64,000 bases of DNA from an uncultured bacterium (lineage in GTDB: Bacteria; Desulfobacterota; Binatia; UBA1149; CAITLU01). Where the stretch lies: positions 32,187 through 96,186 of the forward strand of contig CAITLU010000046.1 in assembly GCA_903893315.1 (NCBI GenBank), read 5' to 3'. Shown here in pieces: positions 13,073 through 19,750 of this stretch (the stretch's first letter is position 1; the number at the start of each line of letters is the position of its first letter). Below the pieces are notes generated by a model. That model was not told where the DNA came from and made no database searches. It saw only the letters and a program-made list of their open reading frames with translations. The position numbers and the translations under genes are program-made.

Positions 13073-14071
13073 TTATTGCGCGGTAGCGAGAACGTGCCGG
13101 CGCAGATCCGCGATCGTGTCGCGCAGCGTTTCGTCGGGATCACGCGGCGAGAAACCGAGCTCGCGTGCGGCCTTGAAACTGTCGAAGTACCAGAACGCCT
13201 GGCTCATCTCGATCGACACCGGGTCGAACGGATTTTCCCTTCCGAGCAGACGGGAGATCGGTTGCAACGCATACGCCAACCAGCGCGACGGAGCGTCGGG
13301 CGCCGACAGGTGCGGAACCTTGACCTGCCCGAGCTGCGCCACGCGCGTGACGAACTGGCGTATTGAGCAGTTGAGCGCGCCGAGCAGATAACGCTCGCCC
13401 GCTCGGCCTTTTTCGAGCGCCGCCACGGCCGCGGCGGCAACGTCGCGCACGTCGACGAAGTTGGACCCGCCACTCGGCAGCGCTGGCATCTGGCCGCGCA
13501 GAACTTTCAGCACGTCTTCGGTCGACGACAAACGCTCGTCTCCGGGACCCAGCAACAGGCTCGGGTTGATGCACACCAACTCCAGACCCAGTTTTCTGGA
13601 AAGCGTCAGAGCTTCGCGTTCGGCTTCGATCTTCGTGACGTAGTACGGCCACGTCGACGTGATCGCGAGCGGATACGAATCATCCTCGGTGGCGATGTGC
13701 CGCGCGTCGTGCGAACACGCGATTGCACCGGACGTCGACGCATAGACGACGCGCCTGACGCCGGCACTGTGCGCGGCCTCGAGCACGCTGCGGGTCCCGC
13801 CGACGTGCAGTTCGCGCATCTCCGCCTCGTCGCGCCGGTCGCGGCTGACCTTCCCCGCCAGGTGAATGACTCCCGCGCATCCCTGCACGGCTCTCTCCAA
13901 AGTCGCGCGGTCGAGAATGGAGCCGCGAACGAGTTCCACGCCGGGCCGCTCAAGGCGCGGATCAGTCGAGCGATTGAGGGCACGGACGCCGTGCCCCGCA
14001 GCCAGCAGCGCATCGACGACGTGATGCCCCAGGAAGCCGGATGCGCCGGTAACCATGATCTTGTTTGCCAT
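13073..14071 (-). CDS. NAD-dependent epimerase/dehydratase (dihydroflavonol reductase/HpnA-like)
   Basis: Motifs MVTGASGFLG, VIHLAG, YYVTK, NPSLLLGPGD, FVDVRDVA, GRAGERYLL. Confidence 0.88.
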   Translation of the reverse strand: MANKIMVTGASGFLGHHVVDALLAAGHGVRALNRSTDPRLERPGVELVRGSILDRATLERAVQGCAGVIHLAGKVSRDRRDEAEMRELHVGGTRSVLEAAHSAGVRRVVYASTSGAIACSHDARHIATEDDSYPLAITSTWPYYVTKIEAEREALTLSRKLGLELVCINPSLLLGPGDERLSSTEDVLKVLRGQMPALPSGGSNFVDVRDVAAAAVAALEKGRAGERYLLGALNCSIRQFVTRVAQLGQVKVPHLSAPDAPSRWLAYALQPISRLLGRENPFDPVSIEMSQAFWYFDSFKAARELGFSPRDPDETLRDTIADLRRHVLATAQ

Positions 14072-14431
14072 ACTCCAACCGACCCTTATCCGCGTGCTTC
14101 GCGTCCGGCGCCGCCCCGCGGCGTCCACGTGTCGCTGCGCCGCGAACACCGCAACGCTTCATGCGCAACCTCTTACAGCCACGCGCTCGGCCGCGACCAT
14201 ATCCGTTCGGCGCTCGGTGCCAAGCGGACACCGCCCGTCGTGTCAACGCGGCGTGCTGAAATCGGCCTGTGTCCGCATACCGGCGCAGCGCCGCGGGTCA
14301 CACAGCCGACACCGGCCGCGCACCTCGCTGCGTGCGCGAGCAAGCCGCGTGGCCTGCCGCTTCTTTGATCGATGCGAGTTACCAGCCGTCGGCCTGCTGC
14401 GCGACTTCATTCGCGATCACGGCGCCGACCG

Positions 14432-15382
14432 TCAGATTCCCAATCCGCCGTCGAACAAATCGCTGCGCGGCTGCGCCTGGCTGATGGAACTGCCCGACGG
14501 AACGCCGCGGGTAAGCCAGACGTTGCCGCCTATGCTGGAACCGCGGCCGATCGTGATGCGGCCGAGGATCGTCGCTCCGGCGTAAACCGTGACGTCGTCC
14601 TCGACGATCGGATGACGCAGCCGTCCCTTGATCGGCCGGCCCAGTTCGTCCGTCGGAAAGCTCTTCGCACCCAACGTGACGCCTTGGTAGAGCCGCACGC
14701 GTTCGCCTATCACGCTGGTCTCTCCAATGACCACGCCGGTACCGTGGTCGATGAAGAAACTGCCGCCGATCTGCGCGCCCGGATGGATGTCGATCCCGGT
14801 AGTGCTGTGCGCCAGCTCCGCGATGATGCGTGCGATGAGAGGAACTTCGAGCTTGTACAGTTCGTGTGCAATGCGGTGGTGGATCACCGCGGTGATACCC
14901 GGATAGCAGAACACCGCTTCGTCGGCACTGGTGGCGGCCGGATCTCCTTCGTATGCGGCGCGCGCATCGCTGCCCAGCAGCGCACGCACCGCCGGCAGCC
15001 TTTCGGAAAACTCGCAGGTTATTTCGGTCGCCCGTCGTTCGTAACCGGCAAAGTCACCGTCGCTGGGCGCGCTCGCGAAGAGCAGAGCACGTTGCACCTG
15101 CTCATGGAGCGCGCAAAGAGCGGTGTCCAGACGATGGCCGACGTAGTCGCGGATAGCCTCGGCCGACAGATCCGGCGCACCGAAGTGCGCCGGGAAGAGC
15201 GCTGCGCGAAGTTCGTCGACAACCTCCGCGAGCGCTTCCCGCGACGGGAACACGTGCCGGCCGGACTTCCGCCGCTGATTCGGCAGCAGGTCCGCGTTGG
15301 CGTCGGTAAGGGCGCCGACCAGCGACCTGAGATTCCAGCCTGGATGAGGCGGCTTGTCCGCTGTTGCGGAGGACGGGTTCAC
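14432..15382 (-). CDS. cysE: Serine O-acetyltransferase
   Basis: Motifs [47 protein letters not shown]; overlaps the cysK stop (GTGA). Confidence 0.93.
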
Positions 15383-16356
15383 AGCGCCGACCCCTGCGCG
15401 TCGAAGAGCCCCTCGAAAAGGATCGAACTGAGGTAGCGTTCTCCGGAATCAGGCAGCACGACGACGATCGTCTTGCCGGCGTTCTCCGGCCGCTGTGCCA
15501 ATCTCACCGCCACCGCCACCGCAGCGCCGCTCGAGATACCGGACAGGATGCCTTCCTCGCGCGCCAGCCGCCGGGCGTAAGCAACCGACTCTTCGTTGGT
15601 GACCTGCTCGACCTCATCGACGATGGACAGATCGAGAGCCTGGGGAACAAAGCCCGCGCCGATTCCCTGGATCTTGTGCGGTCCGGGCTGGAGAGGCTCG
15701 CCGGCACGTTTCTGGGTGAGCACCGGACTGGCCGACGGCTCGACCGCGACGGTGAGGATCTTCTTGCCGCGCGTATGCTTTATGTAACGCGACACTCCGG
15801 TGATGGTTCCGCCGGTGCCGACGCCGGAAACGAAAATGTCGACAGCGCCGTCGGTGTCGTCCCAGATCTCAGGCCCGGTCGTACTCTCGTGGACTGCCGG
15901 ATTGGCCGGATTGGAGAACTGCTGCAGCAGCACGTAACGCGCAGGGTCGGTGGCGGCGATCGCTTCGGCCTTGGCCACGGCGCCGGTCATGCCGCGGGCG
16001 CCTTCGGTCAGCACCAGTTTCGCACCGAAGGCCACCAGCAACTTGCGCCGCTCGATGCTCATGGTGTCGGGCATCGTCAGCGTCAGAGGGTAACCGCGGG
16101 AGGCGGCGACGAAGGCCAGTGCGATACCTGTGTTGCCGCTCGTCGGCTCCACCAGTTCCTTGCCGGCACCGAGCACGCCGCGGCGCTCGGCATCCCAGAC
16201 CATCGCCGCGCCGATACGGCACTTGACCGAGTATGCGGGATTGCGGCCTTCGACCTTGGCCAGGATCGTCGCAGGTGCGCCGCCGTGAACCTTGTTGAGC
16301 CGTACCAGGGGAGTGTGTCCGATAGAGTGAGCGTTGTCTTCAAACCAGTGCGACAT
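15379..16356 (-). CDS. cysK: Cysteine synthase A (O-acetylserine sulfhydrylase)
   Basis: Motifs [18 protein letters not shown] (PLP Lys), [40 protein letters not shown] before MSHWF. Confidence 0.96.
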
Positions 16357-16431
16357 GATGTCGTCCTCCATTGTTATTTCTGCCGAGAGTGCAGTGCGGA
16401 AAGCGGAGGTGACGCCCGCGAGTCACCAGGT

Positions 16432-16473
16432 AAAAACGAAACGGCCCGGGAAGCGACAACTTCCCGGGCCGTT
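16432..16473 (-). terminator. Intrinsic terminator (attenuator) in the cysK leader
   Basis: Minus strand AACGGCCCGGGAAG-TTGTCG-CTTCCCGGGCCGTT (14-bp perfect stem, 16440-16473) followed by TCGTTTTT; lies between the leader ORF and cysK. Confidence 0.85.
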
Positions 16474-16502
16474 GAGATCGTGACTACGAATTCGAACTGA
16501 CT

Positions 16503-16607
16503 TCAGGAGACGAGTTCGAAGGCCGCACAACCCCGCGCACGGGAAGGCTCCCAGGCCTCGGTACAACAACAACAGGTGCCGTCGGTCGTGTGGCTGACAT
16601 CGTTCAT
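16503..16607 (-). CDS. Putative cysteine-rich leader (attenuator) peptide, 34 aa: MNDVSHTTDGTCCCCTEAWEPSRARGCAAFELVS
   Basis: ATG at 16607, four tandem TGT codons (16563-16574), TGA at 16503; sits between a promoter and the terminator upstream of cysK. Confidence 0.75.
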   Translation of the reverse strand: MNDVSHTTDGTCCCCTEAWEPSRARGCAAFELVS

Positions 16608-16616
16608 CAGTACGCG

Positions 16617-16645
16617 CTTATGAACCGGCGCCCGCCGGCTGTCAA
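16617..16645 (-). promoter_or_regulatory. Sigma70-like promoter of the cys leader/cysK-cysE operon
   Basis: Minus strand TTGACA (16645-16640), 17-nt spacer, CATAAG (16622-16617), then 9 nt to the leader ATG. Confidence 0.65.
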
Positions 16646-16815
16646 TCCCCCGCCGTGAACTTTCCCCGCCGCCACGTCCGGGATCTTCATGCGTGCGGCG
16701 CGGCAATTTCCGCAGGAGTCCGGCACGCGGCGGTCGTATCACCGCCGCTCCCCGTCGCGTGCAGCGCTCACCAACAGACAGCCCCGCAGCCGCGCCGCCT
16801 TCCGATCGAGCCCCG

Positions 16816-17790
16816 TCAGCCAACCATCGGGAAGATGTCCCGCCGGAATATCTCGGCCTGCGAGTCGCCGGCGCCGAACGAGGCGATGTCGTGAAAGTAG
16901 AATACGAGACCGTCGACTCCCATCTTCTTCCACTCATAGAGGAACTCGGCGCAGCGCTCGCGCGTTCCGTGACACGACACGAAGTTGAGCAGTTTCTCGG
17001 CGCTTAAACCCTGCGGCGCAATCCTTTGGAAAAAGCGCTCGTGCTCAACCGCGGAATTGAAAGCGATGCCGCCCGATACCGCCGTGATCTTGATCTCCTC
17101 GAAGTCGCGCCCCACCGCCAGGCAATGCTCCTTGAGGACATTACGGTAGCGAGGAAATTCTTCCTGCGACCCGTTGTAGTTCCACACGTCCGCGTACTTC
17201 GCGACCAGACGCAGCATCACCTTTTCGCCGCGCCCACCGATCCAGATCGGAGGACGCGGCCTCTGCAGCGGGCGCGGCCGACACACGGCGTCGTCGAGGC
17301 GAAAGTGCTTGCCCTCGTACGACACCGCATCTTCGTCGCTCCAGAGACGCTGCACGATCTCGAGGGTTTCACCAAGGCGTGCAAGACGCACTCCGATCGG
17401 AGGCATCGGATAACCGTAGGCGTTGAATTCCTCTTCGAACCAGCCGGCGCCGATGCCGAAATTCAAGCGGCCGCCGCTCATCACGTCGACGCTGGCAGCG
17501 ATCTTGGCCAGGTAGCTCGGGTGGCGGTATTCGTTACAGGTGACGAGCTGGCCGATGCGCGCCCTCTCGGTAATCGCCGCCATGTTGGCCATCATCGTCC
17601 ATGCCTCGAACGTGGCCTCGACCATCTTGCGCGGATACGTATGAAAGTGGTCGTACACCCACAGCGATTCCCACCCCGCTTCGTCGAGGCCGCGAATCAC
17701 GCGCTGACAGGTCTTCCACTTCTCGGCATCGCCGTCGATGCCGGACAGATCCAGTCGCCACCCCTGAGGAACCAGGACTCCGTATTCCAT
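16816..17790 (-). CDS. LLM-class (probably F420-dependent) oxidoreductase
   Basis: Motifs MEYGVLVPQGW, LWVYDHFH, GQLVTCNEYRHP, DVMSGGRL, GIGAGW, PPIWIGG. Confidence 0.88.
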   Translation of the reverse strand: MEYGVLVPQGWRLDLSGIDGDAEKWKTCQRVIRGLDEAGWESLWVYDHFHTYPRKMVEATFEAWTMMANMAAITERARIGQLVTCNEYRHPSYLAKIAASVDVMSGGRLNFGIGAGWFEEEFNAYGYPMPPIGVRLARLGETLEIVQRLWSDEDAVSYEGKHFRLDDAVCRPRPLQRPRPPIWIGGRGEKVMLRLVAKYADVWNYNGSQEEFPRYRNVLKEHCLAVGRDFEEIKITAVSGGIAFNSAVEHERFFQRIAPQGLSAEKLLNFVSCHGTRERCAEFLYEWKKMGVDGLVFYFHDIASFGAGDSQAEIFRRDIFPMVG

Positions 17791-18050
17791 CGCGATCACC
17801 CCTTGCGTTCGCACGCCGGACCACAGCACCGAAGCACGGCGCTGCCTGCCCCGACACCGCCGCGCCAACCTTGGCGCCTCTCCATGCCGGTGCTCGGCAT
17901 AAGCCACCCTCGATGAGACAACAAGTTCACGGCAGCGCGGCGGCATGTGCGCGGCGCCCTCCCTGTCGGCGCCGCGCCGCGCGGCACGCCGGTGACACCC
18001 GCCTGCTTGCGCTTCTTGCCCCTCTGCGCTCCCGGGAGTACAGAACGCGC

Positions 18051-18611
18051 ATGCTCGGTGAAATTCGTATCGTGCCAGGACTGCTGATCGCGATGCCACA
18101 GCTTCGCGATCCCAATTTCCACCGCTCGGTAGTGCTGATGGTAGAGCACCAGGAGCAGGGCGCCTTCGGCCTCGTCATCAACAAGCCCACCCGCGTTCCG
18201 GTCAGCGAACTGCTCAGCGCGATCGACGTCGACTGGCGGGGTTCATCCACCGAAGTGGCGTGGGCCGGCGGACCGGTACAGCCGGAAACCGGCTGGATCC
18301 TGCACGAGCCGGTCGAGGGCCTGAGCGGCGAAGGTACGCACGAAATCATGCCTGGCCTGTTCATGTCGTCGGCGCCCGACGCGCTGCGCGTGCTGGCGGC
18401 CGGGCCTCCCAAGCGCGTGCGCTTCGTGCTCGGCTATTCGGGATGGGGACCGTCCCAGCTCGAGCGCGAGCTTACCGAAACCGCGTGGGTCAACAGCGAC
18501 CTCAATGCCGATTTTCTTTTCGACACGCCGCCCGAAGAAATGTGGGAAGCCGCGCTGGCCCGCATCGGCGTTTCGCCGACAACGCTCGCGCCGGCGCCCG
18601 GTATCCACTGA
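18051..18611 (+). CDS. YqgE/AlgH family protein
   Basis: Motifs [46 protein letters not shown]. Confidence 0.92.
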
Positions 18612-18661
18612 CCGGCTCTGCTGCCGGCAATACCAGCGACGCAAAAAGCTCTCGGATACAC

Positions 18662-19750
18662 ATGGAACGCATTCTGATACTCGGAGCCACCGGCTACACC
18701 GGACGTCTGGTTGCCGAAGCACTCGAAAGCCTCGGTCGCGACTACGTCATCGCCGGCCGCAACCTCCAGGCCCTCGAGCAGCTGAGCGCAGACCTGCCTT
18801 CACGTCCCGAGGTTCGCATTGCAGATGTCGGCGACGCGCCATCGCTGCAGCGAGCACTCGCCGGCATCAAAGCCGTCGTCAATACCGTCGGTCCGTTTCG
18901 ACGTCTGGGATTGCCCGTCGTGCGTGCAGCGGTCGACCTCGGAGTTCACTACGTGGACACCACTGGTGAGCAGAGCTTCCAGATGCAGGTCTACGACGAG
19001 TTGCACCGTCACGCGATCGCCACTGCCTGCACGGTGATCACCGGCGCGGCTTTCGAGTACACTTTCAGTTACCTTGGCGCGGCGCTGCTTCACGAACGTT
19101 GCGGTCCGCTGCTCACGGTAAGTTGCTATCAGCTGACCGACAATTTTTACGCGAGCGTCGGAACCGCAAAGAGCGCTGTCGGTATGCTGGGCGAGGAGTT
19201 TCTCGCCTTTCGTGAAGGACGCCTGACACCGCTGCCGTCGCGCTGGCAGCCGCGGCGGGTGTTGTTTCCCGGCGAGCGCGAGTCCCTCTGGGCGGTACCG
19301 TTTCCCGGCGGCGATGCCGTGATGCTGCCGCTGGACATCCAGACCTTGCAGGCCGCTACGTCATACATACTGCTGCCCCAGTGGCCTGCCCGCATGCTCG
19401 CACTGGTCGCGGCCACGCAGCCGTACCTGCGAAAAGTGCTCGGAGACGGGTTGCTAGGCCGCGCGGAAAACGCGCTCGGCCGCTTGCACAGCGATCCGCC
19501 TCGCGAGCAGCGACACGGCTCCCCCTGGACCGTGTTCGTGCACGCCCAGAGTCCGTCGGGAAGCCACCTGTGCCGCATGCAGGGCGCCGACACCTACGCA
19601 ACTTCGGGGGCGACGGCCGCACTCACCGCGACGTGGCTCGCCGAAGGCCGCGCCCGCGACGCCGGCGTGATGACTACCGGCAAGGCGCTGCCGGCAATGG
19701 ATTTTCTCGACGCGCTGGCGCCCTTCGGCGTTCGCTGGGAACTCCGCTGA
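18662..19750 (+). CDS. Saccharopine dehydrogenase-like NADP-binding protein
   Basis: Motifs ILGATGYTG, IAGRN, NTVGPF, HYVDTTGE. Confidence 0.82.
   Translation: MERILILGATGYTGRLVAEALESLGRDYVIAGRNLQALEQLSADLPSRPEVRIADVGDAPSLQRALAGIKAVVNTVGPFRRLGLPVVRAAVDLGVHYVDTTGEQSFQMQVYDELHRHAIATACTVITGAAFEYTFSYLGAALLHERCGPLLTVSCYQLTDNFYASVGTAKSAVGMLGEEFLAFREGRLTPLPSRWQPRRVLFPGERESLWAVPFPGGDAVMLPLDIQTLQAATSYILLPQWPARMLALVAATQPYLRKVLGDGLLGRAENALGRLHSDPPREQRHGSPWTVFVHAQSPSGSHLCRMQGADTYATSGATAALTATWLAEGRARDAGVMTTGKALPAMDFLDALAPFGVRWELR

Follow-up and report, generated by a model that had tools for sequence, protein, structure and literature searches.

We examined a leader element located upstream of cysK on the minus strand of a 64,000-nucleotide stretch of DNA (the window) from an uncultured bacterium of the class Binatia. 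Judged from its sequence and from that of its homologs, the element is likely (with a probability of about 0.8) to be a ribosome-mediated transcription attenuator that senses charged tRNA-Cys. It combines a short open reading frame (ORF) carrying four tandem Cys codons with a small hairpin, an antiterminator strand and an intrinsic terminator, and this whole arrangement recurs at 58 loci besides the window. The best explanation places it in a family that controls, throughout class Binatia, the uptake of sulfate (sbp-cysT...), cysK and, in the window's genome, a metY-metX operon as well. This large family, which seems not to have been described before, watches over genes for sulfur uptake and cysteine across the class, which is uncultured. 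An earlier interpretation made from the window alone (the sequence-only reading) had proposed an attenuator of the trp/his type. In agreement with that proposal, 59 homologous leaders keep the Cys run and its frame, the place of the stop codon, the terminator and the proposed antiterminator pairing, and the sulfur-gene contexts and, in part, folds with a masked ribosome lend further support.

Anatomy of the leader and its homologs

All features of the leader are on the minus strand. A -35-like box read from the sequence (TTGACA, 16640..16645) lies 38 nucleotides (nt) before the ATG of the leader ORF, and a -10-like hexamer (16617..16622) follows it after a 17-nt spacer, with the ATG 9 nt further on. 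The leader ORF, evident both in the sequence and in the ORF listing, spans 16503..16607 and consists of 34 codons and a TGA stop. Codons 12-15 are four consecutive TGT codons (16563..16574), presumably the regulatory codons, and a fifth TGT occurs at codon 27 (16529-16527). Segment 1 (16549..16553) starts 10 nt past the final Cys codon of the run and is the 5' arm of a small protector hairpin, in which it pairs with 16544-16540; the GGGA/TCCC hairpin occupies 16552-16541. Segment 2, the antiterminator strand CTTCCCGTGC (16537..16546), can pair with either segment 1 or the 5' arm of the terminator, and is complementary to 16469-16460 at 9 of 10 positions. Segment 3 (16459..16473) is the 5' arm of the intrinsic terminator, and segment 4 (16429..16454) comprises its 3' arm (16454-16440) and a T-rich tail. 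The terminator (16473-16440) has 15 pairs, 14 Watson-Crick and one G-T, closed by a 4-nt loop. The ORF with its TGT run, the GGGA/TCCC hairpin, the antiterminator pairing and a hairpin with a U-rich tail before cysK had all been noted in the sequence-only reading and were recovered here, the last as this 15-pair terminator; the antiterminator pairing is also kept across the family. An 8-bp stem-loop across the leader stop codon (16491..16520, with 16520-16513 pairing with 16498-16491), which had been proposed to bring the two antiterminator partners together, is present in the window but is specific to it: among relatives only 55% of 56 alignment cells were paired, and 72 of 500 shuffles scored as high.

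The leader arrangement is more than a chance occurrence, since runs of four TGT codons are rare in the genome, the 269-nt leader folds with a z-score of -3.56 against shuffles, and the layout recurs at the 58 other loci. Only two TGT x4 runs exist in the 3.68-Mb genome (both strands, any frame), among 67 runs of at least four TGY codons. The other TGT x4 run, on contig C52, was rejected as a leader, as it has no terminator and no sulfur gene. A permissive scan of 15000-18000 against Rfam 15 (cmscan, E <= 10) gave no family match to the leader; the scan returned a chance-level match only, inside cysK (Sr006, 18.6 bits vs. a gathering score of 100).

BLAST with the window leader against 41 relatives retrieved nothing beyond that leader except a 37-nt match due to chance. 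The resulting impression of a singleton was wrong, because the family is too diverged to be reached by BLAST from the window member. BLAST from other leaders within their own families led to Cys leaders before sulfate-binding-protein genes, away from cysK. When the regions ahead of cysK orthologs were screened for two adjacent Cys codons, homologous leaders were found at 3 of 30 loci (up to 500 nt upstream, the window's own included) and at none of 57 further upstream stretches of up to 650 nt, one of which was only 66 nt long and three of which had no recognizable cysK start. This screen undercounts, as cysK-linked leaders lying farther upstream or with fewer Cys codons (L322, L280 and L336) were found later with R1, a covariance model built from 10 leaders (before cysK and sbp, the gene for the sulfate-binding protein) with the hairpin formed by segments 1 and 2 (hairpin 1:2) and the terminator as its structure. 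At a separate locus (L152) a run of four Cys codons was seen at -453.

Among 151 Binatia genomes, 46 contained some R1 match at E <= 0.001, and 37 contained full-length matches at E <= 1e-7. The latter comprised 53 matches, with a maximum of four per genome. Of the 19 families of the class that were sampled, 11 had matches. Together with six loci outside that sample, the 53 make up the 59 full-length members of alignment A6. At 80 cysK loci from GTDB genomes of many phyla, no Cys leader was seen by eye and R1 had no match (0/80), while 80 metagenome cysK loci yielded one R1 match (L220). The window's genome itself carries a second copy (contig C66, 16138-16301, plus strand; nhmmer E = 2.6e-22) with three tandem TGT codons and its own terminator. 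At one antiterminator position this copy has A-U instead of C-G. It precedes a DUF3034 gene, then a gene for a Cys/Met-metabolism pyridoxal phosphate enzyme that we read as metY, and then a 606-codon ORF that we read as metX by eye only, without a family search.

The genes downstream of the 59 members point to sulfur assimilation. A sulfate ATP-binding cassette (ABC) transporter gene follows in 36 (sbp in 35, CysT in one), cysK in five, and another sulfur-linked gene in three (a metY operon, an ABC ATPase gene followed by cysK, and a gene for a rhodanese-domain protein). In three members the next gene is porin-like, in eight it has no family match, and in four the context could not be assessed because of a contig end or the lack of an ORF. 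Recognizable sulfur-assimilation genes were therefore present in 44 of 55 assessable contexts, and cysS was downstream in none of the 55. Despite the cysK and sbp seeds, this association is a result rather than a built-in feature, because the R1 search was genome-wide. The element that the sequence-only reading assigned to cysK-cysE is one member of a class-wide family and no peculiarity of these two genes; the main target of the family is the sulfate transporter (36/59 vs. 5/59 for cysK). The porin-like first genes (at L344, L358 and L351) belong to the Alginate_exp or Porin_5 families, and the proteins they encode may be sulfate- or sulfur-compound-specific porins.

Leader ORFs were called by a fixed rule in 57 members, and the remaining two members also have Cys runs. 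The longest tandem run is at least three Cys codons in 45 of the 57 leaders and at least two in 50, with a range of one to five across the family. Of 58 members, 55 end the aligned run with UGU, and the leader Cys codons overall comprise 163 TGT and 62 TGC (72% TGT), compared to 22% TGT in the long ORFs of the window's genome. Since the only tRNA-Cys in the assembly has the anticodon GCA, UGU would be read by wobble. No stop codon interrupts the Cys frame upstream in any of 58 members. Read in the Cys frame, 57 of 58 members have their first stop 42-72 nt past the last Cys codon, whereas only 12 and 15 of 58 do so in the two alternative frames. The Cys run is located 18-21 codons before the leader stop. 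From the stop codon to the terminator the distance is about 30 nt in the window and has a median of 24 nt in the family. In 47 of 57 members the start codon of the leader is preceded by TTGAC at a distance of 36-43 nt, and a Shine-Dalgarno-like 4-mer occurs ahead of that codon in only 3 of 57. Given this spacing, together with the 17-nt spacer and the 6-nt -10 box, transcription would start at or next to the start codon, and the leader ORF is probably leaderless.

In many members the residues after the Cys run are conserved. This would suit a functional Cys-rich micro-protein, metal or redox related and merely co-transcribed, with the hairpin ending a separate small transcript. We regard such a function as very improbable indeed. 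The conserved residues overlie hairpin 1:2, and the compensatory changes in this hairpin alter the encoded residues, which indicates a constraint on the RNA rather than on the peptide. Furthermore, the peptide length before the Cys run is not conserved, and a micro-protein would leave unexplained the constant position of the element, in the same orientation, before sulfur genes.

Conserved RNA structures and the proposed switch

Pairing and covariation were assessed on three alignments. A6 was fitted to the R1 structure, which contains hairpin 1:2 and the terminator but not the antiterminator; two MAFFT alignments, A2 (nine sequences, not structure-fitted) and A4, served as further tests. On A6, 93.0% of the 1142 cells of hairpin 1:2 and the terminator were paired, a level reached by none of 500 shuffles, and 15 of the 20 pairs showed compensatory changes. 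Taken separately, the small hairpin 1:2 had 91% of its cells paired across the 59 sequences with compensatory changes in 4 of 5 pairs, and the terminator helix had 93.6% paired with compensatory changes in 11 of 15. The same two structures on A2 had 95% of 180 cells paired and changes on both sides in five pairs, and again none of 500 shuffles attained either the observed pairing or the covariation score. The Cys run is conserved in relatives and both hairpins have compensatory changes, the two things that the sequence-only reading had suggested looking for.

The antiterminator was likewise kept. On A4, 87 of 100 cells were paired, with 2 of 500 shuffles as high. On A6 the figure was 80.4% of 581 cells, compared to 40-58% when the partner was slid by one to three columns; here 8 cells were changed on both sides, and 3 of 500 shuffles scored as high. 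At one position a mismatch is conserved. Segments 1 and 3 are alike, as are segments 2 and 4.

All 59 aligned members keep the terminator as a G+C-rich hairpin matched by the model, with T-rich tails in nearly all. This bears on a second alternative, that cysteine acts through translation or Rho-dependent polarity in the mycobacterial style and that the hairpin merely stabilizes the transcript or causes pausing. The layout of a leaderless poly-Cys small ORF does resemble the mycobacterial system, which was shown in the cited preprint to act on translation and not on termination (bioRxiv 10.1101/834739). However, such a mechanism is highly improbable for the Binatia leaders, given the conservation of the terminator, the position of the Cys run well before the stop rather than at the C terminus, and the distance from the hairpin to the next start codon, which ranges from about 0 to >500 nt across the family and makes a fixed pairing with a Shine-Dalgarno region unlikely.

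The effect of ribosome position was modeled by cutting transcripts just before the terminator 3' arm and folding them with a 28-nt ribosome footprint masked, the antiterminator being scored as at least five pairs between segment 2 and the terminator 5' arm. With the ribosome on the last Cys codon, the antiterminator was predicted in 52 of 58 members, compared to 33 with no ribosome and 28 with the ribosome at the stop codon. Masked folding had been suggested as a check in the sequence-only reading. In the truncated window transcript it gives 8 antiterminator pairs with the stalled ribosome and none in each of the other two states. Equilibrium folds of the full leader always keep the terminator, ribosome masks included, and so carry no information on the switch.

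From these observations we infer the following sequence of events for a transcription attenuator in the window. Transcription would start at or just before the ATG of the 34-codon leader ORF. When Cys-tRNA is plentiful, the ribosome would pass the four TGT codons and reach the stop codon ahead of the terminator; hairpin 1:2 would re-form behind it, the terminator (segments 3 and 4) would form, and transcription would stop before cysK. When Cys-tRNA is scarce, the ribosome would instead wait on the TGT run with its leading edge at the base of hairpin 1:2, leaving segment 2 free to pair with the emerging terminator 5' arm. The terminator would then be blocked and cysK-cysE transcribed.

Several points weigh against this interpretation. 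Its support is wholly computational and the organism is uncultured; public RNA runs were looked up and none was listed. As already noted, the terminator persists in every equilibrium fold of the full leader. In addition, 24 of 58 members are predicted to form the antiterminator in all three ribosome states, so the switch has to be kinetic in nature; the argument here is that hairpins would fold locally before any other pairing, each as it is synthesized. At trpL, the terminating ribosome covers segment 2. Here, the stop codon is downstream of segment 2, so that a terminating ribosome leaves segment 2 uncovered. Covariation in the antiterminator is modest, with 3 of 10 pairs changed on both sides, a count reached by 225 of 500 shuffles, and its complementarity is not fully independent evidence because of the likeness between segments 1 and 3 and between segments 2 and 4. 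Kinship alone can also let related sequences outscore shuffles without any structure. In 7 of 57 leaders there are no two adjacent Cys codons, and two of the leaders have a single Cys codon. Finally, most Binatia cysK orthologs have no leader, and the same-genus genome that was searched has neither this cysK nor an R1 match.

The leaders without adjacent Cys codons and the folds that are independent of ribosome position would also fit a leader RNA that is read by a protein or a small molecule, whether riboswitch-like or by protein-mediated antitermination, in which translation of the ORF is not the sensor. That the RNA hairpins are the most conserved parts of the element is consistent with this as well. 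Nevertheless, we consider such a switch improbable: in nearly all members the Cys run shares its frame with a start codon whose distance from the promoter is fixed, no frame but that of the Cys run has a conserved stop position, and the bias toward TGT is strong. The lack of an Rfam family match also argues against it, and a run that varies from one to five codons fits a codon counter and not a ligand pocket. Attenuation by a ribosome sensing charged tRNA-Cys is thus the reading that we retain.

Neighboring genes, host genome and related leaders

The identities of the two genes downstream of the window leader, cysK and cysE, had been given in the sequence-only reading and were confirmed by family profiles. 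The cysK gene (cysteine synthase A; 15379..16356, minus strand) matches TIGR01139 with an E value of 2.3e-136. Its probable start is the ATG at 16356, which lies behind GGAGGA (16369-16364); this start is favored over the alternative ATG at 16371 from the ORF listing because in most orthologs the alignment begins only at residue 5 or 6 of the longer version. The cysE gene (serine O-acetyltransferase; 14432..15382, minus strand) overlaps the end of cysK by 4 nt. It matches TIGR01172 at 5.2e-48, below the cut-off of that model, and NF041874 (serine O-acetyltransferase EpsC) at 6.6e-48, above the cut-off. In a simple promoter scan of 14000-19000, the sole sigma-70-like match was at 14196-14223 (minus strand), just past cysE and before an HpnA-like epimerase gene.

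The assembly comprises 67 contigs and 3.68 Mb with 64% G+C and an estimated completeness of 98%. This type of cysK is patchy in the class, with an ortholog at E <= 1e-120 in 78 of the 401 genomes sampled. In the genomes searched from the same genus and the same family, there is only a cysteine synthase 44-57% identical. Several Binatia cysK orthologs that lack a Cys leader have a short ORF immediately before cysK that ends in a common acidic Asn-Asp-Trp-Asp motif (loci L001/L113, L119/L199 and L200, in the 100-200 nt just 5' of cysK). The sulfate-binding-protein gene of the window's own genome lies directly behind another gene, and no R1 match was found in the 1.5 kb upstream of it; the ORF ahead of it appears porin-like by eye only, without a family search.

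Other leaders deserve mention on their own account. At L280, two family members lie in tandem (764-933 and 1371-1544), about 600 nt apart, before one cysK, with three Cys codons in the first and one in the second. A weak R1 match at L363 (2501-2671, minus strand; E = 1.4e-5) is a Leu-rich short ORF with a terminator directly before leuA and is probably a leucine attenuator in Binatia.

A second, structurally different class of Cys leader was seen in one Binatia family (alignment A3), at L084 (2585-2796, minus strand), L294 (1432-1640), L295 (1475-1683, minus strand), L296 (1430-1640) and L305 (1422-1630). In these leaders, tandem Cys codons are accompanied by a GGGC/GCCC hairpin and by a terminator whose 5' arm is C-rich. 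Their strand logic is reversed, in that the Cys-proximal strand of the hairpin, and not the distal one, is complementary to the terminator 5' arm. The downstream contexts are a cysK ortholog, a pair of cysE and a family-2B encapsulin gene, a cysteine-dioxygenase-like gene, and an MgtC gene; the leader before MgtC has no U tail. It is conceivable, but short of probable, that tRNA-Cys charging, read by leaderless poly-Cys mini-ORFs with intrinsic terminators, is the main regulator of all sulfur assimilation in Binatia (sulfate uptake, cysK/cysE and metY) in place of the CysB-type factors of proteobacteria, and that at least two structurally different attenuator classes have evolved to this end.

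The family has several uses. R1 can serve as an annotation handle for operons under sulfur regulation, among them ones with unknown porin-like and DUF genes. The members also provide a compact set of natural variants on how the number of regulatory codons and the choice of a rare codon tune an attenuator. Moreover, the leader is a simple part, and in vitro tests of it do not require the organism in culture.

Comparison with known systems

Cysteine has so far been the odd case among the classically attenuated amino acids, and the only Cys leader with a terminator reported so far is a prediction ahead of cysS (PMC8632094). From its sequence, the Binatia family appears to join a leaderless ORF with Cys codons to an intrinsic terminator, and would govern sulfate transport and cysteine and homocysteine synthesis in an environmentally widespread uncultured class. 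Full-text literature searches, which do not reach subscription-only papers, gave no account of a terminator-bearing Cys leader ahead of cysK or sulfate-transport genes, nor of one from Binatia. In a survey of premature terminators, cysteine appears in the reference list only.

The prediction before cysS is the uORFC-8-2 motif of Rhodobacterales (Brewer et al., RNA Biol 2021, PMC8632094), a predicted ribosome-mediated Cys attenuator. As described there, it shares with the Binatia leaders tandem Cys codons (two in that motif), stems, a terminal U run and a Gram-negative lineage. However, that description places it only before cysS and in a different phylum, with the two Cys codons inside the first stem, whereas the Binatia leaders have 3-5 Cys codons ahead of the first stem, the run ending 10 nt before it, and the targets are sulfate uptake and cysteine/homocysteine synthesis. 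The two are set apart here on the basis of this description. Candidate Cys leader peptides have also been proposed in Actinobacteria, as short ORFs with runs of Cys codons before cys operons (Seliverstov et al., BMC Microbiol 2005, PMC1262725). Those leaders were reported to lack conserved terminator hairpins, and Rho dependence was suggested; in the Binatia leaders, by contrast, the terminator is the best-conserved part.

The nearest experimentally tested system is that of the polycysteine leaderless small ORFs (sORFs) of mycobacteria (Canestrari et al., bioRxiv 10.1101/834739; Mol Microbiol 2020). According to the preprint, the poly-Cys tract is C-terminal and its RNA base-pairs with the Shine-Dalgarno region of the gene that follows, which makes control translational, with no terminator involved; poly-Cys control in mycobacteria is cited as translational in PMC13236596 as well. 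The preprint's authors state that no attenuation by an upstream ORF was known to them for cysteine. As there described, the mycobacterial sORFs resemble what is proposed for the Binatia leaders in being short leaderless ORFs with consecutive Cys codons, located before sulfur and cysteine genes including cysK1-cysE, with cysteine read through the transit of the ribosome. Unlike the sORFs of that account, the Binatia leaders carry the tract internally, at the 18-21-codon distance from the stop given above, and have a conserved intrinsic terminator and antiterminator.

The enterobacterial attenuators of the trpL/hisL type share with the Binatia family a short leader ORF with tandem codons for the amino acid that the controlled genes make, an intrinsic terminator, a mutually exclusive antiterminator, and the likeness of segment 1 to segment 3 and of segment 2 to segment 4 (the mechanism as outlined in bioRxiv 10.1101/834739). 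Unlike them, the Binatia family would sense cysteine, and its leader ORF is seemingly leaderless and without a Shine-Dalgarno site. Its stop codon is found between segments 2 and 3 instead of beside segment 2, the targets include a transporter operon, and there is no sequence relationship, as judged by the absence of an Rfam match. The Binatia family probably works like a trp/his attenuator and shares with mycobacteria the idea of a leaderless Cys ORF, but it is a member of neither group by sequence or by layout.

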